Source: an uncultured virus (IMG/VR IMGVR_UViG_3300018494_004239) (Duplodnaviria > Heunggongvirae > Uroviricota > Caudoviricetes). Taken from it: a stretch of 64,000 nt of DNA. The notes under the pieces were generated by a model. The model worked only from the letters and a program-made list of their open reading frames with translations. It was not told where the DNA came from and ran no database searches. Position numbers and translations under genes: made by a program. The DNA lies in the IMG/VR virus record IMGVR_UViG_3300018494_004239. One strand, written 5' to 3'. Positions 3,267 to 52,390 of this stretch are shown here, in pieces; the first letter of the stretch is position 1, and each line of letters opens with the position of its first letter.

Positions 3267-4076
3267 GTGAATGATATGTTTTTTATATTACAAGCGCAAG
3301 ACGATATGAAGTTGATGCAGGTTGATTATGCTATATTAAAGGAACTTCTTGAATATTCTCATTTTGACTATGCTGAAATGCGTTTAGCAGATTTTTATAA
3401 CGGTGATAAACAATTGAAAAAATCTACTGAATTTCCAAATGAATATAAAGATGCTATTCCGCTCGGCACTATCAATTTCGTTACTGCATATCTTAATATT
3501 TTCAAAAATATAGAGAAAATGAATCCAATAGAGATTCCCAAATGCTTACGGACGGATGAGTTTTTGAAAAGAAAATATAGTATAATGTACGGCAAAGATA
3601 TTCCAAAGGACAAAGCATATTTTATAAAAAATGTTTCTACCTTAAAAACATTTTCTTATACTGGTCGAATAGATGCTATTTACAATGAACCCGATGCACT
3701 GTCGCAAAAAAGACCTATTGAGGATGATGATTTGTATCAAGTTTCTGATATTTTGAATATTCGTTCTGAATATCGAGTTTACTTTATCGCTGGAGAGTTA
3801 TATGCTATTGCTTATTATGATGGTGATGCAACGGTTTTTCCCGATGTTAATTTGATACAAAAGGCAAACTTAATCTATTCTATGCAGAAAGATTATCCAA
3901 GAAGTTATACTATGGACGTTGCGGTTTCTGATAAGGGCACTGCAATTTTGGAATGCCATCCCCTATTTAGTTGCGGTATTTATCAGACAGTTTTGGGAGT
4001 AGACTTTCTCTATGGGTATCGTGACTCTATGTATTATCTTGAGCGATACAATACAAAACATGAAGCGGATACGTGA
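3267..4076 (+). CDS. ATP-grasp domain protein (DUF4343/R2K-like)
   Basis: 'FIKN', 'SEYRVYF', 'YTMDVAV..GTAILECH...CGIY'. Confidence 0.7.
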   Translation: MNDMFFILQAQDDMKLMQVDYAILKELLEYSHFDYAEMRLADFYNGDKQLKKSTEFPNEYKDAIPLGTINFVTAYLNIFKNIEKMNPIEIPKCLRTDEFLKRKYSIMYGKDIPKDKAYFIKNVSTLKTFSYTGRIDAIYNEPDALSQKRPIEDDDLYQVSDILNIRSEYRVYFIAGELYAIAYYDGDATVFPDVNLIQKANLIYSMQKDYPRSYTMDVAVSDKGTAILECHPLFSCGIYQTVLGVDFLYGYRDSMYYLERYNTKHEADT

Positions 4077-4087
4077 GGAATATAAAA

Positions 4088-4135
4088 ATAGCGGTCTTAT
4101 CTGCCTTTTAGGGCGGGTAAGACCGTTTTTCTTTT
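4088..4135 (+). terminator. Intrinsic terminator
   Basis: gcggtcttatctgcc/gggcgggtaagaccgt stem followed by T-run. Confidence 0.75.
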
Positions 4136-4308
4136 ATTGGGGATATTCGGTTATTGGTTATATATTGGATGTGTTATAGGGTGTTCTGTGGGGTTATGGA
4201 AGTATTGGGTATTTAATATTGTGTCGTTATTAGTATATTTAAGGCTGGTTAATGGAATGTAGTTAATAGTTTTCTTTTTTATGAGTCGTGAACAAAGGGA
4301 TTGGTGGG

Positions 4309-4404
4309 TGAACTATTTTAGTGGGTTATGGGAATAGGCGAGGGGATGTGAATTATTTTAGTGGGTTATGGGAATGGGGTTGGATGGTGGGGTGGGTGGG
4401 TAGG
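4309..4404 (+). repeat. G-rich tract with a 27-bp direct repeat and G-quadruplex-capable motif
   Basis: TGAA(C/T)TATTTTAGTGGGTTATGGGAAT twice, then GGGG-N9-GGGG-T-GGG-T-GGG. Confidence 0.75.
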
Positions 4405-4467
4405 TGATATTTTTCACGAGCATGCATAAAAAAATCGGGGAACTTTCGTTCCCCAGATTATATATGA

Positions 4468-5775
4468 TTAACTGATGACGAAGGCAGGGTAAACAGGACG
4501 ACTATCGTATGCATTGACATGGTATTCATCGCCACGACCATAACAGAAGAAATCCTCATAACAGCGAGAATAAGGCGAACGAAGCCAGAACCAATCGTCA
4601 ACATAACCGTCGTCGGCAAACCAATCAAATGTTTCGCCTTCTGCTTCAATTTCAGTTATATACTCGTACCAACCAGACATGTCGTCATTAAAACCAACCT
4701 CTTTGATGGAAGGTAAGAATAAATAACAAGTTACACACTTTGAGCTATTCAAATTATTATCACCATCGGCACATGTAATGGTTGTAGGACTAATTACTGC
4801 TCTTAAATTTGCATCGAGATTATTATATACTTCTCCATCCAACCATGTCTTCATTTCTGTATCTGTATAACCATTGATATTATCGCCCCAAGGATAATCT
4901 GTACTTGGTGCAGTCATTCTGTGGTTGCCAATGTTTGATGTAAGCATAAATGTAACTTTATCACTATCAATGTCAACAATCCGTGCTTGTCTTGTATTCC
5001 CGTTGATTGTAAAACTTGGAGTCAAATCCCCTGTTTTCCAACCTGCATCGGTAACTTTTCCTGCACGAATTACTGCTTGAATTGTTGTCCAGTCGTTATT
5101 GGCAAGAGTTGAATCAACGGTGGACATATCAAGAGAAGTGTCTCCACTTAACGTAGCACCAAGTGTAAGGTCAATCCACTGTGCATTTACACTGTCTGAT
5201 GTGATATCATTACCTTTTGCATCCATACCAGAGATAGCATACTTATCTAATTCAGCAGCAGTTTTTGTCGGTTCTGCAACTACAACAACACCACAATCTG
5301 GTGAATACCAATAGTGCACATCTGATTGCTTTGGTTCAAAGGTGGAACTGGAAGTTTTTGTATAGTTTTCTACAACTTTTTGCATAGTGTAAGCATTCAT
5401 AGGATATTTGGTGTCTCTATAAATTGCAATCACATCATCAGCAACTGTTGCATTTTGAGCGAACTCGATTCCTTCAATACCAGCACGAGTTGTCACATCA
5501 ATTACATTTTTAACTCTACCCTGTGCACTGTCTAAATTATCTGGGTCTAATGTACCAGAGGCAATGTCCTGACAGTAGAGTTCATACTCCGAAGCAAATC
5601 TTTCGAGTGCATTTGTCATCTCGTTGCTATTAGTTTTATCAGCAGATACATTTGCTCTGTCAATAAGTCCTGCAACTGAAGGAATTGCGATAGCGGCAAG
5701 AACTGCGAGAATGCCAATAACTACGAGTAATTCAATTAAAGTAAAACCCTTACGGGATTTAATATTTAGTTTCAT
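4468..5775 (-). CDS. Type IV pilin-like protein (copy 2) with DUF6273-like/C-lectin-type C-terminal domain; candidate DGR target
   Basis: Prepilin signal; C-terminus 'YLFLPSIKEV', 'WFWLRSP', 'VYPAFVI'. Confidence 0.85.
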   Translation of the reverse strand: MKLNIKSRKGFTLIELLVVIGILAVLAAIAIPSVAGLIDRANVSADKTNSNEMTNALERFASEYELYCQDIASGTLDPDNLDSAQGRVKNVIDVTTRAGIEGIEFAQNATVADDVIAIYRDTKYPMNAYTMQKVVENYTKTSSSTFEPKQSDVHYWYSPDCGVVVVAEPTKTAAELDKYAISGMDAKGNDITSDSVNAQWIDLTLGATLSGDTSLDMSTVDSTLANNDWTTIQAVIRAGKVTDAGWKTGDLTPSFTINGNTRQARIVDIDSDKVTFMLTSNIGNHRMTAPSTDYPWGDNINGYTDTEMKTWLDGEVYNNLDANLRAVISPTTITCADGDNNLNSSKCVTCYLFLPSIKEVGFNDDMSGWYEYITEIEAEGETFDWFADDGYVDDWFWLRSPYSRCYEDFFCYGRGDEYHVNAYDSRPVYPAFVIS

Positions 5776-6064
5776 AAGAAATCATCCTTTCACATATAGT
5801 ATATTTACTATACGTGATTTTTTTCTTGTCAATGAAAAATCTCTACGAACTTTTCGTGGAGATTTGTATTCACCGTCGTCTACTTCTTTGTTTTTTGTTA
5901 TTTAATGGTGTCTATTGCATAAGTTTAATTTTTGTGGGGTTTTGAAGTGGGAAGATAGATAATATTATAGGGATAAAAGGCAAAAATGTTTGAATTTTTG
6001 GGAAGTGCTATTGGGTAGTAGAAAACATAAAAAGGACATCGATATCGATGTCCTTTTTGGAAAA

Positions 6065-7435
6065 TTATTTGCAACCTGCATTGTGGACAACTACACCATT
6101 AACAATGTAATTGTGGAAATTTGCAACACCTAAATTGTAAGTGTTATAGTTATCTATTGCAGGTCTGGTTTCAATAGAAATTATTGTGACATTGTTGTTG
6201 TATCCGACCAAGGTGTCTCCAACTTCTAACATTGGTACAATTCCAACATCAGTAATTGTCTCAACCATTTCTGGTCTCAAAGATTTCCAGCCATCTGTGG
6301 TGAGGAGTGGATGATATGCTCTCATTCCGATTTGTGTACCATCAGAAAGATTTACATATACAAGGTCATCAGAATTGTGCTTGATAATGGTATTGGTTAC
6401 TGGTTGTGCAACAAATTCGCCAGTAGTTTCATTGAGTGACATTACCATATCACCAACAATAACATCTTCAATGTTCTTGGTTGTTCCATCTGCCATCAAA
6501 ACTTGTGAACCAGCATCAAAGCAACACCAATGGATTGGTTGATAATCTCTTCCATCAACTATAACATGGGTTCTTTCGACCCAATAAGAATCTGGCGCAC
6601 CACTTAAACTCCAAGAATCAGCGGATGTATGTTTTGGTGTATAAATTCTTATAGCATCATCATGCATAAAGTCAAAGTAAATTTCTGGTGTTGGAGTTGT
6701 TCTTTGATATTCTGGATGTTCATTCAACCATTCTTCCCAAGTTTGACCTTCTTTTGCTGTAAATCTATAACCAGCAAAACTAAAAGTTATTGTTTTTACC
6801 ATTGGTACTTGCGAGTCAGATGTTACATTACACCAATTTGCATAATTATCATCAAGTGCATTTCCTTTTGCATCCTTGCCAGAAACCACTAAATCATTAA
6901 GTTGTGCAATAGAGGCATTAGTATCAGCAACTACAACAATACCACAATCTGGATTGTACCAATAACTGCAATCTGATTGTTTTGGTTCAAATGTTGCGCT
7001 TGATGTTTTTGTATAATTTTGAATAATGGCTTCAAGTGTATATGTATTTAGTGGGTATTTAGTATCTCTACTAATTTTAGAATTTAAGTGTCCATTGCTT
7101 TCTAAATTAGTGATGTCTTCACGAGATACAGCACCAGTTACATTGAATACTCTACCTTGTGCACTATCTAAATCGCCATCTGGTTTGCCATCGCCATTTT
7201 CGTCTTTAATGACACCACTGGCAATATCCTGACAATAGAGTTCGTATTCGCTTGCGAATCTTTCGATTGCATTAGTATATTCATTAGCATTGGTATTGTC
7301 GGCAGAAACATTTGCTCTGTCAATCAAACCAGCAACACTTGGAATGGCAATTGCTGCGAGCACAGCAAGAATACCAATGACCACAAGTAGTTCAATTAGT
7401 GTGAAACCCTTACGGGATTTGTAATTAAATTTCAT
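6065..7435 (-). CDS. Type IV pilin-like protein (copy 3) with C-terminal Hint (intein-like) domain
   Basis: Prepilin signal; Hint 'CFDAGSQVLMADG..KNIEDVIVGDMV', 'HPLLT..GW', 'TYNLGVANFHNYIVNGVVVHN' (6080..6523). Confidence 0.9.
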   Translation of the reverse strand: MKFNYKSRKGFTLIELLVVIGILAVLAAIAIPSVAGLIDRANVSADNTNANEYTNAIERFASEYELYCQDIASGVIKDENGDGKPDGDLDSAQGRVFNVTGAVSREDITNLESNGHLNSKISRDTKYPLNTYTLEAIIQNYTKTSSATFEPKQSDCSYWYNPDCGIVVVADTNASIAQLNDLVVSGKDAKGNALDDNYANWCNVTSDSQVPMVKTITFSFAGYRFTAKEGQTWEEWLNEHPEYQRTTPTPEIYFDFMHDDAIRIYTPKHTSADSWSLSGAPDSYWVERTHVIVDGRDYQPIHWCCFDAGSQVLMADGTTKNIEDVIVGDMVMSLNETTGEFVAQPVTNTIIKHNSDDLVYVNLSDGTQIGMRAYHPLLTTDGWKSLRPEMVETITDVGIVPMLEVGDTLVGYNNNVTIISIETRPAIDNYNTYNLGVANFHNYIVNGVVVHNAGCK

Positions 7436-7537
7436 AAGAAATCATCCTTTCATACTTGATAAACTAAATATAAATGATTTTCTTCTTTTTGTCAATGAAA
7501 AATCTCCACCATAAAGGTGGAGATTTGTATTGTGTAT

Positions 7538-8196: not shown

Positions 8197-10653
8197 TTAT
8201 GAAAAGTTATCGCTCGACATAATAAATTCTCTTCTTGCTGGCACATCATTGCCCATAAGAATAGAAGTGATATTATTTGCTTCGATAGCATCTTCAATTT
8301 CAACTTTTTTGAGTTTTCTTGTTTCTGGATTCATCGTGGTTTCCCACAATTGTTTTGCATCCATTTCGCCTACGCTTTTATCCGATATTACTATCGGTGC
8401 TGACTATTTCTTGTCTCTGGCTGGTAACTAACTGCCTTCATAGACTCTACCTTTTCCAACTGTGTATCAATAACAGTTGTACTCTCCAACAACGGAGATA
8501 GTCGATACATGATTAAAGATTAAAAATCTTATTTCACACGAGACCATCCTCATTCACAACTATATGTTGTAGTAGGAATATCCCTCGTTAGCCACACATT
8601 GTGTGACCCCTCTGATAGAGGAAAAGTAGATAAGGGCCAGACTACTCGTACCCTTTGTACCGTTGTATATCAAAATTCTTATGTGTTTTTCTGTATTCTT
8701 CTAATTCTTTGTCGGAATACATATAAACTTCAGACTTTGATGTTTTTGCTCGATATAGCGGAGGCATCGCATTATAAACTTTACCAGCATAAATAAGTTC
8801 TGGCATAAATCTATAAAAAAATGTTAATAAAAGTGTTCTGATGTGCCCGCCGTCAATATCCGCGTCAGCCATGATTATGATTTTATCATAATTGAGTTTT
8901 GAAATATCAAAATCATTACCAAGACCAGTTGAAAAACCACAACCGAAAGCATTTATCATTGCCTTAATTTCGGCATTGTCTAAAATTTTTCCAATCGATT
9001 GTCTTTCAACATTAAGAATTTTACCTCGAATTGGGAGGATTGCTTGATATTTTCTGTTTCTTGCGGTTTTTGCTGAACCGCCTGCAGATTTCGTTACAAC
9101 CACAATTTCTTATGGAACTGACTATTTCTTCACTCCGACTTGTCAGGTCATCATCGTGTCCAACATTTCCCAGTGTGTATCAATAACACCAGTACTCTCC
9201 AACAACGGAGATAGTCGATACAGAGTTGTATTTTACAACTTCCACGAGATTAACTTCGCCTAACCTTGTTTTGACATTCAAGGATAACGGTCAGTCTTCC
9301 TCGTTAGCAAATACATTGTATTTACCCCTGTGATAGCAGGAAAGAAGGATAAGGGCAAATCTTTCTCTCACCCTCAACGATAAAGATTTCGCATTTTGAG
9401 GCATCATTGGATTCTTGTCTCGAAAGTTTTCCGTTGCCTTCAAATGAGAATTTCTTATCGGCAATATTTGTTTTGATTTTTTCTTCTTCTCGGCGTAATT
9501 TTGCCGATTTTTCAGCACTTGCAATAATTGTCTTCAATACATCAACATTTCTATCGAAGAAAACCTGCAGTTCTGTGTTTAATATGGATTGAATTATGTT
9601 TTTAGCATCCGTATTGTCTAACTTTGTTTTTGTTTGACCTTCGAAACGAGGTGCTGGGTGTTTGATAGAAAGAACACAAACCATACCATTTCTTGTGTCA
9701 TTGCCTGTGAAGTTCGGGTCTTTTTCCTTGAGAGAACCAATATCTCTCGCATATTGATTGAGAATACGGGCAAATCCTGCTTTGAAACCATCAATATGTG
9801 TTCCGCCTTCAACAGTGTTGATGTTGTTACAAAAACCAATTAGATTGTCTCCAAATTCATTAACATATTGAAAGGCACACTCAAAAATAATTCCATCTTT
9901 TTCACCGTTGATAAATGCAACGGGTGTGCTCTTTTCTTTATCTTTTGTTAACGATAAGACAAAACCTTTTAATCCATCTTCTTCGTGAAATACCTTTTCT
10001 GGTAAATCATCTCTATCATTTCTAAAAACGATTGTTAAGTTTGGATTTAGGAATGCTGTTTCGTGCAATCTTTGTTCAATAGATGATGCCTTGAATTTTG
10101 TAGTATCAAAAATTGTTTCATCTGGGTAAAAAGTAACTGTTGTTCCAGTTTCCTTCGTTTTTCCTTTTGTGGGGAGTGGTTCGTTTTTCTTTAATGGAAA
10201 AGCGGGTTTGCCAAAAGCATATTCGTCATAATGCACAAAACCATCTTTTTTGATAGTTACTATCATCTTTGAAGATAGTGCATTAACAACAGAAGAACCA
10301 ACACCGTGCAAACCACCAGATGTTTTGTAGTTTGAATTATCAAACTTACCGCCAGCATGGAGTGTGGTAAAGATAATTCTTTCTGCTGGATAACCTTTCG
10401 CATGAATATCTACTGGAATACCACGACCATTGTCCTCAATTGTTGCTGAACCGTCTTTGTTCAGGCTCACAATGATTTTGTCGCAATAACCAGAAAGGTG
10501 TTCATCAACGGAGTTATCCACAATTTCAAATATTAGATGGTTTAATCCTTTTACTGATGTAGAACCGATATACATACCTGGTCTTTTTCGTACAGGGTCT
10601 AAACCTTCCAATACGGTAATGCTATCTGCATTATATTGCTTCAAAATAATCAC
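8197..10653 (-). CDS. gyrB: Type IIA topoisomerase B subunit (GyrB/ParE-like), three exons: 10653-9370, 9091-8650, 8372-8197; 633 aa spliced
   Basis: [66 protein letters not shown]...LWETTMNP; exons sum to 1902 nt in frame. Confidence 0.92.
8373..8649 (-). ncRNA. Group I intron 2 of gyrB (277 nt, no ORF)
   Basis: 5' exon ends AAAGGGU and pairs with GCCCUU; intron ends in G; P7 elements AUCGACUA / AAGAAAUAGUC; removal restores YKGLGEM. Confidence 0.9.
9092..9369 (-). ncRNA. Group I intron 1 of gyrB (278 nt, no ORF)
   Basis: 5' exon ends GAGGGU and pairs with GCCCUU; IGS AGAUUU pairs with 3' exon AAAUCU; ends in G; same core as intron 2. Confidence 0.9.
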
Positions 10654-19977: not shown

Positions 19978-21539
19978 TATTTAAGTGTCAAAACATCCGT
20001 CTTTGACGGTGGATGCAGGCACAGCGGTCGCACTTGAAGTGCAAGACCGCATATCTTAAACAAACAGTAGAGCGGTAGCGGTGCTGTTTGTTTATTGGAT
20101 TCTATTGACATTTTCTTACTTTTTAAGTATAATTTATACATATAAAACTTATGAAAGGAGTGATAAAAATGTTTAAGAAAGGTTCTTTCAAAAGCAATGG
20201 AACGAATACTGTTAATATTAAATGCAGTATAGACATACCCGTTTCAAAATTAGAACTTCTCAATAAATATTTTGGTCACTCTCGTTTTATATATAACTGG
20301 GCAATTGATTTTAATACCGATAGGTACAAGAATAACTTGCAACAGTATAATTTTGTAAATTTGGCAAAAGAATTACCAAATTTAAAGAAAGTAAACCCAT
20401 TTCTTAAAGAAGCAGATGCTACTTGTTTACAACAAGCGTTGCAGGACTATTGGACCACAATGCAACACTTTTATCAAAAGAAATGCGGTTTACCAAAATA
20501 CCGCAGCAAACACAGTAACCAGAGTTTTCGTATAATGAATGTTACAAATGGCATTCGTTTTGATGGTAACAAAATTAAGTTGGGAAAATTTGGTTGGGTG
20601 AGAACCAAACCTAATCAAGCGATACCTAACGGCACTATTCAATCTGCGACTGTTAAAAAAACGAAATCTGGTAAAGTTTATGTAACTCTTACTATTCGTC
20701 GTGCAGATAGAATTGAACAGTTTGATAAAACTGGCAAAGAAGTAGGTATCGATATCGGAATTAGTCATTTCACTACATTTTCCGATGGAACAGTTATCGA
20801 AAAACCCAATTTTATCAAGCAAAACGAAAAGAAAAAGAGAAGACTCTATCGGCAACTCTCTAAAAAGCAAAAGGGTTCAAAAAATAGAGAGAAAGCAAAA
20901 CTAAAATTAGCAAAATTCTGTGGAAAAGATGCGAACTGTAGAGAAGATTTTCTTCATAAGTTATCTCTTGATATAGTAAGAGAATATGACTTAATTGCGG
21001 TAGAGCATCTTAATGTTAAGAAAATGCTAATGGACAATTCTTTGCCTTACAGTAAGGAATTGCATAAAAACATTGGCGAACTTGGTTGGTATTCATTTAT
21101 ATCTAAATTAAAATATAAATCTGAATGGTATGGTAAAACTTTCATACAGGTTGATACCTACTACCCAAGTTCACAAATCTGCAGTTGCTGTGGATACAAA
21201 AATGCAGAAGTAAAAAATCTCTCCGTTAGAAATTGGATATGTCCCAATTGCAATACTGCCCACGATAGAGATTTTAATGCTTCTGTCAACATATTGAACG
21301 AAGGCAAGAGATTGCTCACTGCCTAATTATATAAACAGTACCGTGGGACACACGGGAACTTACGTCTGTGGACATCGTGTAAGACCAGTTGAGTTATGCT
21401 CAATTGGCAGTGATGGAAGAAGCAGAAACCTTGTAATTCCACTTTAATGGTGGTTTCTATAAAAAATGAACAACCCGTGGTTAGACCGTTAGGGTTGTTC
21501 GTAATGGAAACTACCGCTTGAAGCGGTAGAGGATGTCAT
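19978..21539 (+). mobile_element. IS200/IS605-family non-autonomous element (tnpB only)
   Basis: Subterminal hairpins catccgtc..gacggtggatg and ctaccgcttgaagcggtag; inserted after TTAT, ends TCAT (boundary may shift 3 nt); removal restores the deoC frame. Confidence 0.85.
20169..21326 (+). CDS. tnpB: RNA-guided endonuclease TnpB
   Basis: 'FGHSRFIYN', RuvC GIDIG / IAVEHL / HDRDFNASVNI, zinc finger CSCC..CPNC. Confidence 0.93.
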   Translation: MFKKGSFKSNGTNTVNIKCSIDIPVSKLELLNKYFGHSRFIYNWAIDFNTDRYKNNLQQYNFVNLAKELPNLKKVNPFLKEADATCLQQALQDYWTTMQHFYQKKCGLPKYRSKHSNQSFRIMNVTNGIRFDGNKIKLGKFGWVRTKPNQAIPNGTIQSATVKKTKSGKVYVTLTIRRADRIEQFDKTGKEVGIDIGISHFTTFSDGTVIEKPNFIKQNEKKKRRLYRQLSKKQKGSKNREKAKLKLAKFCGKDANCREDFLHKLSLDIVREYDLIAVEHLNVKKMLMDNSLPYSKELHKNIGELGWYSFISKLKYKSEWYGKTFIQVDTYYPSSQICSCCGYKNAEVKNLSVRNWICPNCNTAHDRDFNASVNILNEGKRLLTA

Positions 21540-25845: not shown

Positions 25846-26463
25846 TTACCCTCCATTGTTACTTGTATATAGTATATAGTTTTCTGTTGGCATTTCATTT
25901 GTTAGTCCGTTTTCAACAGATGAAGTAATATTAATCCACATTCCCGTTAAATCATCTTCATCTCTTGTACTCATTAAAATTTCTTTTAATACATTTCTGT
26001 CTGTAATGCCTTTTTCTGCTTTTACAACGAGACCTGTATCTACATTGTAATAGTAATCAAAACCAAATTGAGATGGTGTTGTTAATTTTTTGTTTTCAAC
26101 TTGACAGTAATTAAATACGACTGCTGAAAAACTTTTTGCAGTTATTGGTAAAAAGTCTTTATCAAATGTCGCATTACATCTGTTATTGATTAGTTCTTCA
26201 TAATTCGTTTCTCCATCTGTTACCTGTCTTAATACTGCTTCAACTTTTGGCATATCATAAGTCGCAGACAAATAAGAGCGACCATCAATAGCGTAGTGAT
26301 TTATTGCGATTTCCATTGCTCTAATCTCTTGCATATCGCTTGATGCTCTTGCCTTTTCTATAATTCCAGCAACAGAAGGTACAGTTACGAATGCTAAAAC
26401 AGCAAGAATGCCGATAACTACTAATAGTTCGATAAGGGTAAAACCCTTTTTAGAAGTGAGCAT
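25846..26463 (-). CDS. Short, divergent type IV pilin-like protein (copy 4), no tip domain
   Basis: MLTSKKG|FTLIELLVVIGILAVLAFVTVPSVAG; first gene of the ABC operon. Confidence 0.85.
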   Translation of the reverse strand: MLTSKKGFTLIELLVVIGILAVLAFVTVPSVAGIIEKARASSDMQEIRAMEIAINHYAIDGRSYLSATYDMPKVEAVLRQVTDGETNYEELINNRCNATFDKDFLPITAKSFSAVVFNYCQVENKKLTTPSQFGFDYYYNVDTGLVVKAEKGITDRNVLKEILMSTRDEDDLTGMWINITSSVENGLTNEMPTENYILYTSNNGG

Positions 26464-26611
26464 TTCAAAAGCACCTCCATAAAAATTTTCTACAGTATAA
26501 CATATTTTTTTCACAAAATCAATACAAAAAGTAGTTGACATAGGCACTATTTTGTGATACAATAATGGAGGTAAAACCGAGCACACAAAAGATAAAGGAG
26601 ATTAAAATTTT

Positions 26612-28271: not shown

Positions 28272-29003
28272 ATGGCGAAAGGATATATTTACATAATGAC
28301 CAATCCAGCATTGACAAATATGGTTAAGATAGGATATGCCACGGATGTTGAGGAGAGACGAAAACAATTGAGTGGTACTGCTCTCCCTTATGATTATGAG
28401 GTGTATGCCACTTACGAAACCGCTGGTAATCTGGAAGATAAGAAATTGCATTCCCTAATTGACTTATTAAATCCAAAATTAAGAGTTTCAAAGCACAGAG
28501 AGTTTTATATCATGACACCAGAAGATGCTTTTGCTATGTTAACTGCAATTGCAAGAATCAGTAATACTGCAGAACCAAAGTTTTGGACACAAAATAAACC
28601 ACAACACATCCAAGATGTTGATGGTGATGGTTCAAACAAAGGTAATAATCTTGCCGAAGAAGAGTGGCTTGCAGAAAAAACACCAGAGATGGTTAATTGG
28701 TATCGAATGTTAAAGCGAGACATCTTTGACAAGGTTTCGGGAACATCATTGCGAGTCACACCTAACTATATCTTATGGTTGGCAAACGGCATTGGTTTTT
28801 GCGAGTTCCATTTGCAAAAAAACAAAATCCAAATGTATACTCTTCCTCCTATTGATGACCACGAATTGGGAGACCTGCTCCCAGATAGTTACAATTGGAC
28901 AATGAAGTACCGATTATATATGAATTCATTAGATGATAAAGAAAAAGTAAAAGAAGTATTGATGGATTCTTATAAACAAAGAAATCCTAATTGGAAGGAG
29001 TAA
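28272..29003 (+). CDS. GIY-YIG (T5orf172) domain protein with DUF5655-like C-terminus
   Basis: 'GYIYIMTNP..MVKIGY..VEERRKQL', 'REFY'. Confidence 0.8.
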   Translation: MAKGYIYIMTNPALTNMVKIGYATDVEERRKQLSGTALPYDYEVYATYETAGNLEDKKLHSLIDLLNPKLRVSKHREFYIMTPEDAFAMLTAIARISNTAEPKFWTQNKPQHIQDVDGDGSNKGNNLAEEEWLAEKTPEMVNWYRMLKRDIFDKVSGTSLRVTPNYILWLANGIGFCEFHLQKNKIQMYTLPPIDDHELGDLLPDSYNWTMKYRLYMNSLDDKEKVKEVLMDSYKQRNPNWKE

Positions 29004-31403: not shown

Positions 31404-31615
31404 ATGGATAAATATTTCAAACAAAAACTCGACCAAATAATTGGGATTAGTGATGAGAAAACAATAACCATTCAAATAGATAAGTACCCACGATATTTGT
31501 ACAAATATAGAGACTGCAATAGTGTTTACAACTTCGATATGATAGAGTCTCAATATTTATGGGCAGATATTCCACAACGTTTTTATGACCCCGCCGATTC
31601 TTTGGTGCATTTGAA
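31404..31615 (+). pseudogene. Truncated gene (DUF2971-like N-terminus)
   Basis: 'PRYLYKYR...LWA..P..FYDPADS' then runs into antisense serpin sequence. Confidence 0.55.
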
Positions 31616-32611
31616 ATTGTCTTTGTGTGTAAGACCTTTGCTGAATTTCGAAGTCCATTGTGCTTTTAAATACAGAGCATTTATCAAAACTGTGTTTTTA
31701 TTGGCAACGGAATCATCAACCATATTCTTAATCATTCCATTTGTTTCTTTTTCAATCCAAGTATTGATTTCGTTCTTTAATTTATTTCCGTTTACATTGA
31801 ATACTTCTGCACCGCATGCTTTGTTTATAGCATTTATAAAGGTTGTTTTGATTTTACCACCCTTATTTGCATTGTGCCATACGGAGTTTGCAATATTGAG
31901 AGTTGTTTTGTCCGAACCACCAATAATACCAGGTGATGCGATAATACCATCTTCCTGCGGAGGAGTTTCTGTAATGAGATTATCGAGTGGTTTCGTCATT
32001 TCGAGGTAAGATTTTGCCCAATCTTCACACTCTTTAATAGATTTGAAACCCAAAACCTGTAAAAGTTCTTTTTGAGTTTCTCCATTAGAACCAATTGCTG
32101 CCATAGTAAGCATATATTTTAGAGAAAGAGGAGAAGCAAACATATTTTCTTTGACACCGTATTTTTGTTCCAAATAACTAATCATCTTACTATCGAATAC
32201 TTGAAGACCAACATTAGATTGCTTCACTTCAACTTCATCCTTTACTACAACACGGTCAGAACTGGAAGTCGTATTTTCTTTTTCTGTTTCTGTTTTGTTG
32301 TTATTTACTTTTTCTTGTTCTTTTTCTGTAGTGTTTTCTGTTTCCTTATTTGTATCTTGACTTGGTTTGGTCTCTTGTTCTGTGGTTGATTCTGTTGGTG
32401 TTGTGGCATCTTCTTCTGTTGTGGTATCAGATGGTTCTGTAACAGTTGTGTCTGTTTGTGTGTCATCTGGTGTCGTGTCAGAAGGTTCTGTAGATGTCTC
32501 TGTGTTTGTTGTTTCTTCGTTTGGTTTTGTGTCGTTTTTACTTGTTGCACAACCAGTAACGGAGAAAACTAAAATAATTGCTAAAAGCAATGACAAAAGT
32601 CTTTTAGTCAT
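31583..32611 (-). pseudogene. Secreted/lipoprotein serpin, 3'-truncated
   Basis: Signal with VTGC; 'NMFASPLSL', 'GETQKELLQVLG', 'INTWIEKETNGMI', 'VLINALYLKAQW'; no reactive-centre loop. Confidence 0.8.
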
Positions 32612-34761: not shown

Positions 34762-36177
34762 TTATTGTGGGTTTTTTATAAATTCAATTCTTGGTGCACT
34801 ATTAGAGGTTATTTTCTCAACTTCTATGTCGTCGCCGTAAACAGTGATTTTTGAAGCACCGACATTCATAAACCAATCTGCATGAGAAACGAGATTGGTG
34901 CCTTTGCTAATTGTTATTGTTCCTTCAAGGTTTGAACAACCAACAAAAACTCCGTTTGCATCTTTAACAGATGATGGTATTACAAAATTTTCAAACCTCT
35001 TAACAGAAGAACATCCTTGGAATAAATAGTCAATAATTCTTGCACTTTGGGGGAGTTTAAAGTTATCTATGTTTGTTATGTTTTTACATTCTTTGAACAT
35101 TCCATACACATCAAAAACATTGTCTGGTATAATCAAATTATCAATGTTTGTTAAATTTGCACAACCTGCATAACAACCTCTCATTGATGATATTGGGACT
35201 TCATTAATGGATTCGATAACTGGTGAGTATGATGTTTTGTTTTTATCTATAGTTGTTACATACCATCTTGCCCACTTATAATAATAGTAATAATCTCCAT
35301 AGATATATACATCGCCTTCTTTAGGTGTATCTGGAAATACATAGACTCGTCTATCTACATCAGGAAAATTGTAACTATGGCCACAACTTAAAGCACTTAT
35401 GTATTTCCCATCCGCAAAGGTCCACTGACATGTCGGGCATATAACACATTCTTTAAGATAGATTGCATCATTTGGAACATTTTTGACTGGATTTAAGTCT
35501 GGGTCATTAGAACCATAATCAAGTTTTCCGTCATTTGCTCCATTTGTTAAATTTATCCAAATGGTAGCATTTTCTCCGTTATCTACAAGTGGTCTCCCCT
35601 TTGCATCAACACCAGAAGTTATCATTTTATTTTTGTCTGCGATAGAAGAGTTTGGTGATGCATAAATAACTACACCACAATCTGGACTATACCAATAATG
35701 CATATCTGATTGTTTTGGTTCAAAGGTTGAAGAAGATGTTTTTGTATAACTCTCAATAATTTTCTTTAGTGTATAAGCATTTGCGGGATATTTTGTGTCT
35801 CTATAAAGTTGAGGAATATTGTTGTTGATAGTTCCGTTATATGCTATTTCTGTTGTTTCTATACCATTTCTTGTTGTTATGCCAGTAACACTATAGACTC
35901 TGTTTTGTGTGGCATCCATATTATCTGGTTTGCCATCATTATTTGTATCTATTAATACACCAGATGCAATGTCCTGACAGTAGAGTTCGTACTCACTTGC
36001 AAACCTTTCAATAGCATTTGTATATTCATTGGTGTTAGTTTTGTCAGCAGATACATTCGCTCTATCGATAAGTCCAGCAACTGATGGGATTGCGATAGCG
36101 GCGAGGACTGCAAGGATACCTATAACTACAAGAAGTTCGATTAGTGTAAAACCTGCTTTTGATTTTAGTAGTTTCAT
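34762..36177 (-). CDS. Type IV pilin-like protein (copy 5) with BspA-like LRR C-terminus
   Basis: Prepilin signal KAG|FTLIEL; repeats 'F.GC.NL..I..F.IP.SV'. Confidence 0.88.
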   Translation of the reverse strand: MKLLKSKAGFTLIELLVVIGILAVLAAIAIPSVAGLIDRANVSADKTNTNEYTNAIERFASEYELYCQDIASGVLIDTNNDGKPDNMDATQNRVYSVTGITTRNGIETTEIAYNGTINNNIPQLYRDTKYPANAYTLKKIIESYTKTSSSTFEPKQSDMHYWYSPDCGVVIYASPNSSIADKNKMITSGVDAKGRPLVDNGENATIWINLTNGANDGKLDYGSNDPDLNPVKNVPNDAIYLKECVICPTCQWTFADGKYISALSCGHSYNFPDVDRRVYVFPDTPKEGDVYIYGDYYYYYKWARWYVTTIDKNKTSYSPVIESINEVPISSMRGCYAGCANLTNIDNLIIPDNVFDVYGMFKECKNITNIDNFKLPQSARIIDYLFQGCSSVKRFENFVIPSSVKDANGVFVGCSNLEGTITISKGTNLVSHADWFMNVGASKITVYGDDIEVEKITSNSAPRIEFIKNPQ

Positions 36178-47812: not shown

Positions 47813-48352
47813 TTATTCTGGTCTTTTTAATTGGATGATTCTTGCTCCAATTTGAGCAGATTGTTTTAATTTTTCATAATCATCTTGTAATTGTTCATAT
47901 TGTTCTTCAAGAGAAGAATTCCTTGATTGTATGTTTTTAATTTCAACCTGTAATCGCATATTTTCATGGCGAAGATTTTCAGTTTCAAAATCTCTTAAAA
48001 GAAATTGTCTGACCTGTCTCTCCAGTTCCTCGCATTTTGATTTTAAGCGCTCTACATCGCCCGCAGAGGCAGTCTTTTCATCAAACGAAGAAGAATACTC
48101 CTCTACAAATAAACGCAGTAATTCGTTATTGTAGAAGGTCTTGCGGGCTATCCCAGTGTCTGCTGCGATAACAGAAACATTAATGGGTCTGCCCTGCAAA
48201 ATCTCCCTTGCTTTATTAACTTCCATAAGTCTTGCTTGTATAGCATCGTCTGCCTTTTCAAACTGTGCTAATTTTTGCTTTGAAATAGTATCAACACTTG
48301 CTCCGTGACGAGCAAGGAATTCATTGATGCGAATTATTTTTTCGTTCTCCAT
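47813..48352 (-). CDS. HTH/coiled-coil accessory protein (GinD/TnpC-like)
   Basis: 'INVSVIAADTGIARKTFY' plus long coiled coil; overlaps the third recombinase. Confidence 0.7.
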   Translation of the reverse strand: MENEKIIRINEFLARHGASVDTISKQKLAQFEKADDAIQARLMEVNKAREILQGRPINVSVIAADTGIARKTFYNNELLRLFVEEYSSSFDEKTASAGDVERLKSKCEELERQVRQFLLRDFETENLRHENMRLQVEIKNIQSRNSSLEEQYEQLQDDYEKLKQSAQIGARIIQLKRPE

Positions 48353-50205
48353 AACTCAATCTCCTTTCTGATTTCTTCACGATTCTCCATAATTTCAACG
48401 AGAGATGGATGTTTATCGAGGATTGTATCGAAACCCTTTAACAATATTTCTTTATCTAATTCATCAAGTTCGGGCAACAATCGTCTATTGATGATATCTT
48501 TGAGTTTAGCCAACTCTTTCTGTGCTGCTTTTGTTTTACCAGCATCAGACATCGCTTTATAAGTTCCTTGTAATGTTTGGAAGTTCAAGTAAGACACATC
48601 TACCATATAATAGAAGTGGAAGAGGTTTGGGCATAAATTATATGCACACATCATTTCATTGGTTCTGGCGTCCTTTGAACAAGGCATGAGAGAGGTTTTA
48701 ATGCAAACGCCACCAGTTTTACCCCTGATAACAACTTTGTCTCCAAGAGCCTTCACAATCGCTTCAATATCGGTGTGAACATTGAAACCATTATCAGCAA
48801 TAAACTTCTGAATATTTTCTTTTAATTCTTGACCAAGCATATTGCCACCAAGAGGGGTCACATTGTCTTCAGCAATCTCACGAATAACTTTTTCTGAATA
48901 TTGAATGTTTTCCTGATAAGTATCTTTTGGTCTCACATAATAACCCAACATATAATCAGATAAGTGACCCATGTATTTTTGAATATAAACAAGTGGAACA
49001 CCACGATTATAAAGTGTTGTACAAAGATGTACACGATATTGACGGGTTTCAGGAACATACAAAGAAACAACTTCATTTTCTTTGTTGTTTTTTGTGGTTC
49101 TATGCAATGTGTATTTGTATGGCGAAATTCCTTCCCATTCTGTTGTGCTTTCAACTGGAAGATATTTATACATAAAGTTGTGATATATTCTTCTCCACTG
49201 CACATTTGTATGTGGGACTCTATTGGTTGCAAAAGAAAGTTCGGACGGATTAAATACACACAAGGTTTTGTTGCCATTAGAAAGAGTGGATTTCTTTCGT
49301 AAATTTTTCATCAAATCAAATGCTTCTTTACCAAGACTGTTACAGAAAATATCAAATTCTAATAATGGTTGATGCGCTTTGCTTGGTTTTCTTTCTGTAA
49401 AATGGATATAATGTGTGCGATTGTCGCTTTTAGATAGTTTTTTCTCAAACAATCTATCAGTAGTTAATTCTAAAAAATCGCCTAACCTTAAACCAGTTTG
49501 AGATAACAATACGATAGATGCAGCCATCATTCGCATATCCGTCTCTTCATTCTTGTTTCTCATCACGGACAAGCATTTGGTCAATATGATATTAAAATAT
49601 GTTTCTGGAATATCTGGTAGTTTGGTATCGGTCTGTTTGTCCAATCTTTTCGATTTAACACTTTCTTCGTCCAAAACAGAAATGTCTACTGGGAGTTTCA
49701 ATTCATAGTATTTGGTGAAAAAATAATAAAACTGATACATAGCTTGATACAAATTGTGTGTCGTGGACATAGATGCATTCCTTCGTTTAATTTCATTCAC
49801 AATGTCATCCGTTGTAACAATATGGATGTTTTTATGAGAGGTGCTATTAAAAATGTGTAACATAACACTGACAAAATTAGCATATCTCACTCCAACTGTA
49901 CTGACTTTTGTCTTTCCAGATATTTTATGTAAGACAAAAAATTTGCAATACTCCGCTAATTCAGATGGGAGTTCCGAGAAATTAAATTTACATGCCTTTG
50001 ACTGTCCACCATTGAAATATGGATTAAAGTCCCAAACATCATCAGCAAAAGAAATCTTAAGGTCTTTTGTTGGTACTTTATCAACCACATTTTCGAAGGC
50101 ATCCAAATATTTCTGGGTATCATCAGAAAAAGCGAATGCTGGACTTTTGTGCCAAGGCACATTATCTACATAATCAAATTTTAAAGCAGATGTTCCATCA
50201 ATCAT
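48334..50205 (-). CDS. Tyrosine recombinase 3
   Basis: TGLRLGD, 'RQYR', YMGH....LGYY. Confidence 0.88.
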   Translation of the reverse strand: MIDGTSALKFDYVDNVPWHKSPAFAFSDDTQKYLDAFENVVDKVPTKDLKISFADDVWDFNPYFNGGQSKACKFNFSELPSELAEYCKFFVLHKISGKTKVSTVGVRYANFVSVMLHIFNSTSHKNIHIVTTDDIVNEIKRRNASMSTTHNLYQAMYQFYYFFTKYYELKLPVDISVLDEESVKSKRLDKQTDTKLPDIPETYFNIILTKCLSVMRNKNEETDMRMMAASIVLLSQTGLRLGDFLELTTDRLFEKKLSKSDNRTHYIHFTERKPSKAHQPLLEFDIFCNSLGKEAFDLMKNLRKKSTLSNGNKTLCVFNPSELSFATNRVPHTNVQWRRIYHNFMYKYLPVESTTEWEGISPYKYTLHRTTKNNKENEVVSLYVPETRQYRVHLCTTLYNRGVPLVYIQKYMGHLSDYMLGYYVRPKDTYQENIQYSEKVIREIAEDNVTPLGGNMLGQELKENIQKFIADNGFNVHTDIEAIVKALGDKVVIRGKTGGVCIKTSLMPCSKDARTNEMMCAYNLCPNLFHFYYMVDVSYLNFQTLQGTYKAMSDAGKTKAAQKELAKLKDIINRRLLPELDELDKEILLKGFDTILDKHPSLVEIMENREEIRKEIELWRTKK

Positions 50206-52390
50206 TTATTATGCCCTCCTTATGTTTAATAATTGCTTTTAAATACAGAACATAGAGTTCTTTTATCGTTACGAGGTCTTCTTTATCGTGGCGATTTTTT
50301 GTGCTTTCAATTAAGCGATTAACATTTTCAATTGCTTTTTTGAAAAACACTTCATGTTTAGTTGTTGTAATAAAATGCTTACATGCCATACAGGGCAAAG
50401 CATTAGTCATTATGCAGGTTTCTGCAGAACATTTTCCACAACCATCCTCAACATCGTTTTCTTCACCAGCGAGATGTTCTGGAATGTCATCAACAATTTT
50501 GGAATCGGTTTCAATCAGTTCTGCTCCGATTGTAATACCGTAAGTGGATTCCAACATCTTTTCTAATTCCATTTCAATATAATGGTTTTTAGTTGTGTCA
50601 AGATGTTTATGTTTGGATAACACAGTCATTTCCATATCGCTCTTACCATTTCGCATGATATGTTCCAAAGATTTAGTCATATGAGTATCACGAAGATTGG
50701 ATGCTGTGTAACTGTGTGATAGACCGAGTTCTTTGCATATATCTGACATATTATTGCTAAATAATTGTGCAGATAAAGCACTGATATTCTTTCCTTTTTT
50801 GGGTTTAAATAGGAAAATGTAATTTTTAATACTATCAACCACACACTCTTCTCTGGCAGATTCCGTGTATTCAATAATATCCATTAGTAAATGATATGTC
50901 AATGGACTAATAACACTCGATATTTTTTTACCATGAGATATCTTTGTATTAGATACAACTATAAATTGATTTGGTTTTATTGTTGGTTTTATACAATCTG
51001 TGGTTAAGGTACATATTTGATTTATTCTAAACTCGGTTTGTAATGCTAAATGAAAAATTGTATGCATAAGTTTAAACTTATCGCTTGTTTGACTTTTTTC
51101 TAACAAATATTCATTTATTTTAATCAGGTCTTCATCTGGAATTGTTTTTGCGGTGTTTTTATTTGGTTCTTCATATTGAGATAGGTAATCGAAAAACAAA
51201 TCGTCGAATTGTAACTTTTTACTGTCTTTTGCCCACATCAAGAACCTTCTAATTGCACCTATTTCGTTATTCTTGGTTGATATGTTAATATCTTTTGAAT
51301 TGATTTTTTCTCTTAATAAAATCGCTTCTTGATTTGTGAAATATTTGGTGTTTTTATTGGGATATTTTGCTTGTTTTTTAAGTTCAACAAAGAATTGCAT
51401 ATAGTTGGCAATTAGCATTGGAGAACTTGATTTGAATATCAGTCCACCAACATTTTTATTTGTCACTATATACTCTAACATCAAGTTGACATAATCTGTA
51501 TTTTGTACAAAACTGAAATCAAATGTCATATGGTCTTCTTTTTTCATTCTTGTAGATTGATTGTCAAGACCTTTCAAAATAATACAAATCTTACTTTTAT
51601 TTTTTGGAATGTTTGTAGGATTTAATGTATAAAAGTAAAAATCGTTTGCTAACCAATGTGGGAATCTTCTTGTGAAGATTATTGGTTGTGTCATATAAAA
51701 AGAATTGGTGAACAGATTCTCTTCTGGGTATAATTTAACCAACTCTCTATAAAAATCCGCTATTGCTAAAGCACAGTCATAAATTATTTTGTTGTAGTCG
51801 TCTATGCCATTGAATTTTTGTTTATAGTAGTTTATCTGTGAGAATAACACATTCTCATTAAAATCGCTGGGTTTGTTAATTTTGTTTTCGTATTCAACAA
51901 AACTTTCAATAAAGTTATGTGATAAAAACTCATGCTTCCATAACTCTTCATTAGGACTGTTGGATAAACATTGGCCAATGACTTGCTTCAAAAATTTATT
52001 TTTAGTTTCTATAAATCGAAGCGAATAACTATTGACAGCTTTTATTACGAACAATGATTCGATTTTATTGCTACACATAATTTTTGGAAGCAAAGTACTG
52101 TTTGCATCAACAAGTGTATTAAACACTGGCAACAATTCATAAAGAGTATCTGCATATTCACCGTGATATAAGTTGTTTTTCAATAAAATATACATAACAT
52201 AAAATGCATGTTTTCGGGAATCGTATTTTACAGAATCATTGCAAATATCAGACCAATTGATTTCAGAAATCTTTTTTTGACAATATTCAACGACAAAGGG
52301 ATTGCTTTTGTGTTCTGTTTTTCGCGTGCTATATAGTTTTCTAACCTCTTGAAACACATCATTCATTGTGTTTAATTTATTCAATAGCAT
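50198..52390 (-). CDS. Tyrosine recombinase 2 (divergent)
   Basis: 'EFRINQI','SNLRDT','KHKHLDTTKNHY'. Confidence 0.8.
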   Translation of the reverse strand: MLLNKLNTMNDVFQEVRKLYSTRKTEHKSNPFVVEYCQKKISEINWSDICNDSVKYDSRKHAFYVMYILLKNNLYHGEYADTLYELLPVFNTLVDANSTLLPKIMCSNKIESLFVIKAVNSYSLRFIETKNKFLKQVIGQCLSNSPNEELWKHEFLSHNFIESFVEYENKINKPSDFNENVLFSQINYYKQKFNGIDDYNKIIYDCALAIADFYRELVKLYPEENLFTNSFYMTQPIIFTRRFPHWLANDFYFYTLNPTNIPKNKSKICIILKGLDNQSTRMKKEDHMTFDFSFVQNTDYVNLMLEYIVTNKNVGGLIFKSSSPMLIANYMQFFVELKKQAKYPNKNTKYFTNQEAILLREKINSKDINISTKNNEIGAIRRFLMWAKDSKKLQFDDLFFDYLSQYEEPNKNTAKTIPDEDLIKINEYLLEKSQTSDKFKLMHTIFHLALQTEFRINQICTLTTDCIKPTIKPNQFIVVSNTKISHGKKISSVISPLTYHLLMDIIEYTESAREECVVDSIKNYIFLFKPKKGKNISALSAQLFSNNMSDICKELGLSHSYTASNLRDTHMTKSLEHIMRNGKSDMEMTVLSKHKHLDTTKNHYIEMELEKMLESTYGITIGAELIETDSKIVDDIPEHLAGEENDVEDGCGKCSAETCIMTNALPCMACKHFITTTKHEVFFKKAIENVNRLIESTKNRHDKEDLVTIKELYVLYLKAIIKHKEGIIND

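Follow-up and report, generated by a model that had tools for sequence, protein, structure and literature searches.

A modular type IV pilin ending in an intact Hint domain that resembles type A bacterial intein-like domains

The gene considered here lies at 6065-7435 on the minus strand of a 64,000-nucleotide stretch of DNA, the window, which is IMG/VR virus record IMGVR_UViG_3300018494_004239. It encodes a complete type IV pilin of modular build, from an uncultured bacterium of the Bacillota that lives in animal guts, and, as judged from its sequence, this pilin carries an intact, conserved and terminal Hint domain of the bacterial intein-like (BIL) type. The last 152 residues read as a mobile cassette composed of a short linker, a Cys|Cys junction, the Hint domain, its closing His-Asn and a short tail with a single cysteine. 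This terminal cassette, of a type A BIL-like kind and carried on a modular pilin, has a sequence signature of its own. With a probability of about 0.6, the Hint domain serves as a single-turnover, self-removing cap that would rewrite the C-terminal end of the pilin. Self-processing, which a preliminary description of this DNA had proposed, is indeed the natural expectation for a Hint domain of this class; the one here is catalytically complete and lacks a nucleophile at the +1 position. The gene and its flanks contain the following features.

7467..7495, minus strand: promoter-like site, TTGACA-17 nt-TATATT, 11 of 12 consensus positions matched (a consensus match only)
6065..7435, minus strand: pilin-Hint gene, complete, 456 residues; modular type IV pilin whose C-terminal part is a Hint cassette
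7406..7435, minus strand: prepilin leader, Met1-Gly10 (MKFNYKSRKG|FTLIELLVV)
6824..7405, minus strand: pilin body, residues 11-204; hydrophobic N-terminal helix, then a globular part
6524..6823, minus strand: hypervariable "module X", residues 205-304, containing the motif ITFSFAGYRFTAKEGQTWEEW; its last residue is Cys304 (position -1)
6521..6526, minus strand: predicted scissile junction Cys304|Cys305 (Cys305 codon 6521-6523, Cys304 codon 6524-6526)
6080..6523, minus strand: Hint domain, Cys305-Asn452, 148 residues, resembling a type A BIL domain
6299..6325, minus strand: block B, MRAYHPLLT, residues 371-379; His375 is kept and Arg372 replaces the usual Thr
6080..6085, minus strand: terminal His451-Asn452 (block G), codons read on the sequence
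6068..6079, minus strand: tail Ala453-Gly-Cys455-Lys456, four residues, with Ala at +1 and Cys at +3
6065-6067, minus strand: TAA stop codon, directly after the AGCK tail
6029..6058, minus strand: intrinsic terminator-like hairpin with a 13-bp stem and a T run, 7 nucleotides past the TAA stop

The N-terminal region has the hallmarks of a prepilin, namely a short leader with a final glycine, a hydrophobic helix and a glutamate at +5, and two family models score above their cut-offs (PF07963, 35.7 bits against 21.2; TIGR02532, 32.6 against 16.3). Prepilin peptidase would be expected to cut at Gly10|Phe11, the position that places the glutamate at +5. Four pilin genes of the window share the upstream block that holds the promoter-like site and the ribosome-binding site (family D3). 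At the other end, TAA can be taken as the true end of the gene because the terminator-like hairpin follows it, and with a promoter-like site before it and a terminator behind it the gene has the look of a self-contained, complete unit. The preliminary description of a pilin with a terminal Hint is exact in its coordinates: the domain runs for 148 residues from Cys to His-Asn, with Ala at +1 and a tail of four residues. Two features can be added to that account, a cysteine at position -1 as well and a cysteine at +3 in the tail.

A search with Pfam models, which had been suggested as a check, identifies the domain as PT-HINT (PF07591), with 37.6 bits where 27.7 are required (E 3.3e-9, residues 313-453); other Hint and intein models matched below their cut-offs. 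Chance cannot account for this match or for those to solved structures given next. Against the sequences of the Protein Data Bank (PDB), phmmer returned 8w20_A (E 1.8e-12), the BIL2 entries 6y75/6tmm (E 2e-8) and the BIL of C. thermocellum, 2lwy (E 1.3e-6), with classical inteins ranking behind all of these. Residues 205-456 were modelled with AlphaFold2 from an alignment of 57 sequences, with a mean predicted local distance difference test (pLDDT) score of 84.9; values lie between 85 and 98 in the Hint domain, and the tail is of low confidence. When this model was compared with known structures by Foldseek, BIL2 came first (E 1.7e-11, template-modelling (TM) score 0.89, root-mean-square deviation (rmsd) 1.6 A) together with 2lwy (TM 0.89); there were 66 matches at E <= 0.001, and the 44 of these that were listed are all BIL, intein or Hedgehog entries. 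VIA, an aligner independent of Foldseek, gave Z 23.1 for 6tmm and Z 19.9 for 2lwy (rmsd 1.5 A over 134 residues, 29% identity), followed by inteins (Z 15-19) and by Hedgehog 1at0 (Z 17.0). The solved relatives nearest in sequence and in predicted fold are BIL domains, ahead of inteins.

Type A BILs are described in PMC4031507 and PMC7765530 as having an N-terminal nucleophile, a His-Asn end and no +1 nucleophile, and as occurring in variable regions of secreted bacterial proteins. The sequence hallmarks are present here in Cys305, His451-Asn452 and Ala453 at +1. The setting also agrees, the Hint domain adjoining a module that is only 20-28% identical among homologs and occurring on diverse carriers. 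On sequence and modelled structure the domain resembles the type A bacterial intein-like domains. No endonuclease family was matched within its 148 residues, so that a homing endonuclease was not found, and a search of cultured phage records gave no close relative, the 10 records retrieved all being helicase, terminase or NTPase inteins at 28-33% identity.

Conservation of the catalytic residues was assessed in 60 close relatives, namely 59 proteins and the query, each with a single Hint stretch that scored at least 90 bits and matched over nearly its full length; multi-Hint proteins, fragments, P0009 and P0076 are left out of this set. Cys305, His375 and His451 are present in 60 of 60 and Asn452 in 59, the lone exception being P0001, which has His-His. 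A cysteine at +1 is found in none of them (0/60). The cysteine at -1 occurs in 46; the remaining 14 have mostly glycine there, after a Gly/Ser-rich linker. These 46 Cys|Cys relatives share two further features. One cysteine lies 2-14 residues past His-Asn (mode +3) in 45 of the 46, and it is found in about 40 different tails by hand count, while 13 of the 14 relatives without the -1 cysteine lack it. At block-B position 372 all 14 of the latter keep threonine, and the Cys|Cys relatives have mainly arginine (33) or asparagine (10), with Tyr374, just before His375, in 46 of 46. That the tail cysteine persists while other residues of the tail vary freely is evidence of selection.

Related Hint domains also occur in tandem arrays of 2-9 copies (for example P0136, P0138, P0142-P0144, P0149 and P0150). 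Their linkers are very short, consisting of His-Asn-Lys, Gly/Cys and Cys-Phe, and the next Cys1 comes 2-7 residues past His-Asn. The tail cysteine of the Cys|Cys clade may be the descendant of such a tandem-array junction, or it may be an offset nucleophile. Many other Hint proteins end exactly in ...His-Asn-Lys.

The terminal position of the domain is shared by its relatives. In a word-index search with the whole protein, 8000 candidates were scored and 651 relatives were obtained at E <= 0.001; among the best 120 of these, 12 carry the Hint, and 12 of 12 end 4-6 residues past the His-Asn position. A scan of 1.84 billion representatives with the Hint domain alone gave 7115 matches at E <= 0.001, of which 1063 lie at or below 1e-10 and 60 at or below 1e-30. 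In the best 150 of these 7115, the distance from the last Hint to the C-terminus is at most 30 residues in 85 proteins, 31-150 in 26 and greater in 27, and 12 chains are cut off. Within the set of close relatives, 54 of 60 chains end 0-30 residues past His-Asn, as do all 46 with the Cys|Cys junction. The six that continue for 107-135 residues more (P0186, P0220, P0225, P0231, P0242 and P0257) belong to a sister clade with a Gly|Cys junction and the block-B threonine kept; two of the six, P0186 and P0225, have a match to PF10145, a phage minor-tail family, and a second PT-HINT stands further upstream in P0186. The HN-AGCK ending is kept in the natural variants P0269 and P0270 and in L001, a 98% identical locus.

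The preliminary description had raised the possibility that the domain is a remnant of a Hint-toxin tip, or merely truncated, and had named homologs that all carry a long domain after His-Asn as the sign of mere truncation. The homologs speak otherwise: neither the 12 pilins nor the 54 Hints that end within 30 residues have such a domain, which is the opposite of what had been considered. An arrangement in which PT-HINT precedes a toxin domain was likewise rejected for this protein, since only AGCK follows the Hint and the close relatives are equally terminal.

Comparison with relatives that lack the Hint indicates how the cassette is attached. The 110 residues upstream of each Hint were searched by BLAST against Hint-less proteins. 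Hint-less relatives end 2-14 residues past the last conserved strand (for example ...VIIPNGDYRVTVSN, ...GFAYKYGSTDPV and ...AICPNAVYATRP), and in Hint-bearing relatives the Cys|Cys junction comes 3-13 residues past the same tyrosine and strand (for example ...IIIENNDYSFC| and ...VIVPNAVYNAYYC|). A carrier with leucine-rich repeats (LRR) shows the same layout, with ...CSDGDIFVENNQC| against a Hint-less ...CTDGTITLP. Because the upstream module is complete without it, the Hint domain is an appendage at a natural end rather than an insertion into a conserved site, and a cut on its N-terminal side would therefore yield a product of ordinary length. Most Hint-less relatives have a C-terminal end without cysteine. 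The notion that the tail is a native C-terminus split off by an intein-like insertion is a weak lead at most, as CC, CCPS or CCPT ends are found in only 3 of 25 motif-bearing Hint-less pilins.

The identities between the query and the Hint-bearing pilins P0002-P0007 form a mosaic: 62-84% in the pilin body, 20-28% in residues 205-304 and 76-79% in the Hint domain. A Hint domain so well kept beside so variable a module must be strongly constrained. The same Hint clade is found on a second, ComG-like prepilin family (P0140; TIGR02532, 18.5 against 16.3), on proteins with Big_2, LRR_5, Listeria-Bacteroides-repeat and collagen repeats, and on the phage tail-fibre-like proteins P0129 (phrog_3904, E 5e-34) and P0261 (PF22337).

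Module X itself matched no Pfam family, even at E 10, and a word-index search with the module alone returned only itself. Its AlphaFold2 model, calculated alone, has a mean pLDDT of 76.5 and the order strand-strand-helix-strand-strand. Beta-grasp folds abound among the similar structures listed (ubiquitin-like, TGS, MoaD, 2Fe-2S N-domains, InlB B-repeat), at scores of noise level: the best VIA Z is 4.2 for the module alone and 5.5 in the two-domain model, Foldseek gave no row at E 0.001, and TM scores in the ESM Atlas are 0.34-0.41. A beta-grasp-like topology of the modelled module is a lead only.

Set beside known systems, the pilin domain has in common with the C. thermocellum BIL (2LWY) the Hint fold, the N-terminal cysteine, the His-Asn end, the absence of Cys, Ser or Thr at +1 and a place in a variable secreted protein. 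It differs from type A BILs in standing at the very end of its protein, with a four-residue C-flank, rather than between two domains; in its conserved cysteines at -1 and in the tail, and in the replacement of the block-B threonine by arginine or asparagine beside an invariant tyrosine; and in its carrier, a type IV pilin. BIL2 of Tetrahymena thermophila BUBL1 (6TMM/6Y75), the top structural match, also has a small domain before it. BIL2 is eukaryotic, lies between two ubiquitin-like domains and, according to PMC8616854, forms demonstrated Lys isopeptides, whereas the module upstream in the pilin is weakly beta-grasp-like and no further domain follows the Hint. The likeness to PT-HINT (PF07591) consists in a score above the cut-off. 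That family takes its name from its position ahead of a C-terminal toxin domain; the difference is that no C-terminal toxin domain is present here or in close relatives.

The Hog domain of Hedgehog is not known to have a terminal asparagine. It resembles the pilin domain in being a C-terminal Hint, in its X|Cys-Phe junction and in its fold (1AT0, Z 17.0), and its thioester-based transfer of the N-terminal part is akin to the thioester chemistry proposed below. Hedgehog proteins have a sterol-recognition region after the Hint; in the pilin, His-Asn is followed by four residues. With canonical inteins the domain shares the fold and the catalytic blocks A, B, F and G, but it has no +1 nucleophile, is appended where relatives end, and shows no homing endonuclease.

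Modular type IV pilins such as S. sanguinis PilB offer a likeness of another kind, a pilin module with a grafted C-terminal module. S74 is a self-cleaving chaperone. Pilins that bear it have an analogous self-cutting cap, of a fold unrelated to Hint; a 2021 survey of modular pilins contains 29 with a C-terminal S74 peptidase module (PMC8179133). In Dataset S1 of the same survey the layout "IPR012902 - PF07591" is found in 1 of 1219 proteins, and the main text makes no mention of Hint or intein. A literature search for pilins with Hint, intein or PT-HINT found no natural pilin-Hint fusion described (some of the papers being judged by title), and none was found that pairs intein-like domains with tail fibers.

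The chemistry by which a self-removing cap would operate can be outlined from the family. After export and folding, Cys305 would attack the carbonyl of Cys304, and an N-to-S acyl shift, helped by His375, would give a thioester. Cyclisation of Asn452 would free the tail. If water resolved the thioester, the Hint domain would fall off and Cys304 would become the pilin's C-terminus. If the tail resolved it, the thiol of Cys455 acting first and the amine of Ala453 next, the pilin would end in ...Trp-Cys-Ala-Gly-Cys-Lys. The third resolver could be an outside nucleophile, ligation to an outside molecule being a bare possibility.

Hydrolysis would be the default outcome, because published type A BILs yield mainly cleavage products. 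These domains form an N-terminal thioester and undergo cleavage at the asparagine, with low-yield ligation by the freed amine (PMC4031507). The statement in the preliminary description that splicing needs Cys, Ser or Thr at +1 is for this reason too strict: type A BILs splice at low yield (PMC4031507), since the amine freed by asparagine cyclisation can attack the thioester. Conservation of His-Asn and of the tail cysteine speaks for a part played by the C-terminal side, which favours tail-assisted resolution over a purely Hedgehog-like course.

A number of observations weigh against a self-removing cap. Whatever goes beyond an intact Hint domain is inferred from the chemistry of the family, and simple removal alone would not require a conserved His-Asn and tail cysteine. 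Arg372 replaces, in this clade, the block-B threonine that in most Hint domains assists the first step, and that step may therefore run differently or slowly. In the natural variant P0001, 97% identical, the chain closes with ...GGVVHH-AGCK, as against ...GVVVHN-AGCK in the query and in three further variants; the terminal asparagine may have been lost, or the record may carry sequencing errors, and cleavage on the C-terminal side may not be essential. Some distant terminal Hints that end in ...HNK combine a Cys|Cys junction with a cysteine-free tail of one residue (P0198, P0229, P0234 and P0256). The pairing of the two cysteines in the close relatives (45 with both, 13 with neither, 2 mixed) gives a Fisher p of 4e-11 when kinship is ignored; a maximum-likelihood tree has 2 changes per trait and only 1-2 independent contrasts. 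The link could thus be a single historical event, and with 1-2 independent pairs left by the tree the covariation was dropped as independent evidence. Nor were pilus assembly genes found among the 57 open reading frames of the window that were scanned.

The thioester might instead serve for ligation, the main idea of the preliminary description, although this seems unlikely. The Cys304 thioester would then escape hydrolysis and react with an amine, thiol or hydroxyl from outside, borne by a further pilin, by the cell wall, by a substrate or by the surface of a host or prey. The pilus tip would become covalently anchored or cross-linked, comparable to what Hedgehog achieves with cholesterol and Tetrahymena BIL2 with lysine. 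BIL2, the closest solved structure, joins its upstream ubiquitin-like domain to lysine by an isopeptide bond (PMC8616854), and the weakly beta-grasp-like predicted topology of module X would match such a donor. Moreover, the cassette stands distally on adhesin-type carriers (pilins, LRR, Big_2 and phage tail-fibre-like proteins), where a covalent grip would be useful, and a conserved Hint beside a hypervariable module fits a need for chemical competence. However, the beta-grasp assignment is at noise level, with a best Z of 4.2 and no Foldseek row at E 0.001, and no acceptor, partner gene, recognition region, nucleophile or adduct was found here. Hedgehog needs its sterol-recognition region after the Hint, where the pilin has four residues, and transfer of the Hedgehog type would not need a conserved His-Asn and tail; published type A BILs mainly cleave (PMC4031507). 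It is a bolder and quite doubtful proposal that the cassette, taken together with a small beta-grasp-like module before it, is a bacterial and phage counterpart of the BUBL unit, an ATP-independent, one-shot conjugation warhead at the tips of pili, adhesins and tail fibres. On contact, the latent Cys304 thioester would pass to a lysine or cysteine on the target surface or on an adjacent subunit, and adhesion would become covalent and irreversible with no need of sortase or of thioester-domain adhesins; the two flanking cysteines and the block-B Arg/Asn-for-Thr replacement would act as trigger or relay.

Hint folds can be reused without catalysis. The domain could accordingly be retained as a stable, non-processing tip, either as a binding or structural module or in a latent form that rarely or never fires because, for instance, a disulfide between Cys304 and Cys455 or a bound metal keeps it closed. 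The loss of the block-B threonine throughout the Cys|Cys clade and the existence of P0001 without the terminal asparagine would suit such a tip, as would the two flanking cysteines that adjoin the active site, redox or zinc control having been described for inteins and BIL2. Retention is nonetheless improbable: Cys1, the block-B histidine and His-Asn are present in 59-60 of 60 relatives at identities down to about 45%, which is hard to explain without catalysis, and the cassette is always terminal on otherwise complete proteins, as is typical of a leaving group and not of a working head. Decay of a polymorphic-toxin tip, in which PT-HINT once preceded a toxin domain that was later lost by truncation, would account for PT-HINT being the top Pfam model and for the phage tape-measure-like proteins of the Gly|Cys sister clade, which go on for 107-135 residues past His-Asn. 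This history is very hard to credit, given the terminator right after the stop codon, the intact catalytic residues, the terminal position in 12 of 12 Hint-bearing pilins and in every one of the 46 Cys|Cys relatives, with the tail cysteine in 45 of 46, and the absence of any toxin or immunity gene among the neighbours scanned.

Type IV pili are thought to gain functions through grafted modules. A self-processing Hint would add chemistry after assembly, either as maturation by self-removal or as a reactive thioester on the filament. Since the cassette is also carried by phage tail-fibre-like proteins and adhesins, its role is probably a general one for the extracellular fibres of gut Bacillota and their phages. 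The three linked features of the clade make it a natural variant for testing how a thioester is resolved without a +1 nucleophile. Should the domain only fall off, the outcome is a tidy annotation; should ligation prove true, covalent adhesion would have gained a new route, and protein ligation possibly a compact tool.

The pilin family to which the gene belongs joins a body of about 205 residues to varied C-terminal modules: dockerin (PF00404), BspA-type LRR (PF13306), DUF6273, DUF285, or none that is recognised. Six prepilin genes lie in the window, all on the minus strand (725-1723, 4468-5775, 6065-7435, 25846-26586, 34762-36177 and 57147-58346); the bodies of five of the six are 60-67% identical, and each has a different C-terminal module. 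One of them adjoins the Hint pilin.

4468..5775, minus strand: paralogous pilin with a DUF6273 C-terminal module

In L001 (1337-1701 compared with window 4076-6065) this DUF6273 pilin gene is missing between the Hint pilin and an R2K ATP-grasp gene. Its absence from a locus that is 98% identical implies that a whole pilin gene differs between strains. The metagenome scan that gave L001 yielded 31 short loci from one assembly, with the Hint only in L001, and two scans of genome collections, with the protein and then with alignment A1, found no relative.

The exact query protein occurs in 17 public contigs, the longest of 678,911 bp, and the contig sets of P0272 (a near-copy of P0002) and of P0009 have the same longest contig. 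This suggests that the three proteins come from one genome, in which case at least three pilin-Hint genes are present there. The Hint of P0009 is only 36% identical, its junction is Ile|Cys and its tail reads ADYS, and so different a domain implies that the pilin family acquired terminal Hints more than once.

Dockerin (PF00404) ends are seen in the same pilin family in P0024, P0031, P0038, P0043, P0055-P0060, P0063, P0065 and P0108, and their sequences suggest pili that recruit cohesin-bearing, cellulosome-type partners. The contig set of P0043 shares the 678,911-bp longest contig with the query protein. Only three proteins with dockerin-pilin layouts appear in the 2021 survey of modular pilins (PMC8179133).

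The stretch is found in public runs of faecal and gut metagenomes, those of bovine and sheep gut among them, and pieces from the bovine and sheep gut runs cover parts of the gene at 95-99% likeness. Contigs from an RNA library (run X15, a metatranscriptome) cover 5947-6170, 6285-6605 and 6612-6805 at 93-99.5% likeness, and thus lie over the 3' end of the gene, the region of the junction and module X. They are a weak hint that the pilin-Hint gene is transcribed, DNA carry-over being possible.

Elsewhere in the window, a gyrB/parE-like gene (8197-10653, minus strand) is divided into three open reading frames by two gaps, at about 9104-9321 and 8365-8641. Both gaps lie inside conserved motifs and have in common a 72-nucleotide repeat that is 85% identical. 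One of them gives a weak full-length match to the Group I intron model RF00028 (21.3 bits, where the gathering score is 50; E 0.008), and Rfam over the whole window gave nothing at gathering score. Two small, related introns of a group-I-like kind may interrupt this topoisomerase gene. At 48334-53735 (minus strand), three large tyrosine-recombinase (Phage_integrase) genes in a row, with 623, 730 and 452 residues, adjoin restriction-modification and GmrSD/HNH genes, and the region is probably an integrated mobile element. The window also contains a TnpB/IS605 OrfB-type gene (20151-21326, plus strand), a T5orf172 protein that matches the PADLOC candidate PDC-S57 at E 1.5e-43 (28272-29003, plus strand) and a serpin gene (31583-32611, minus strand).

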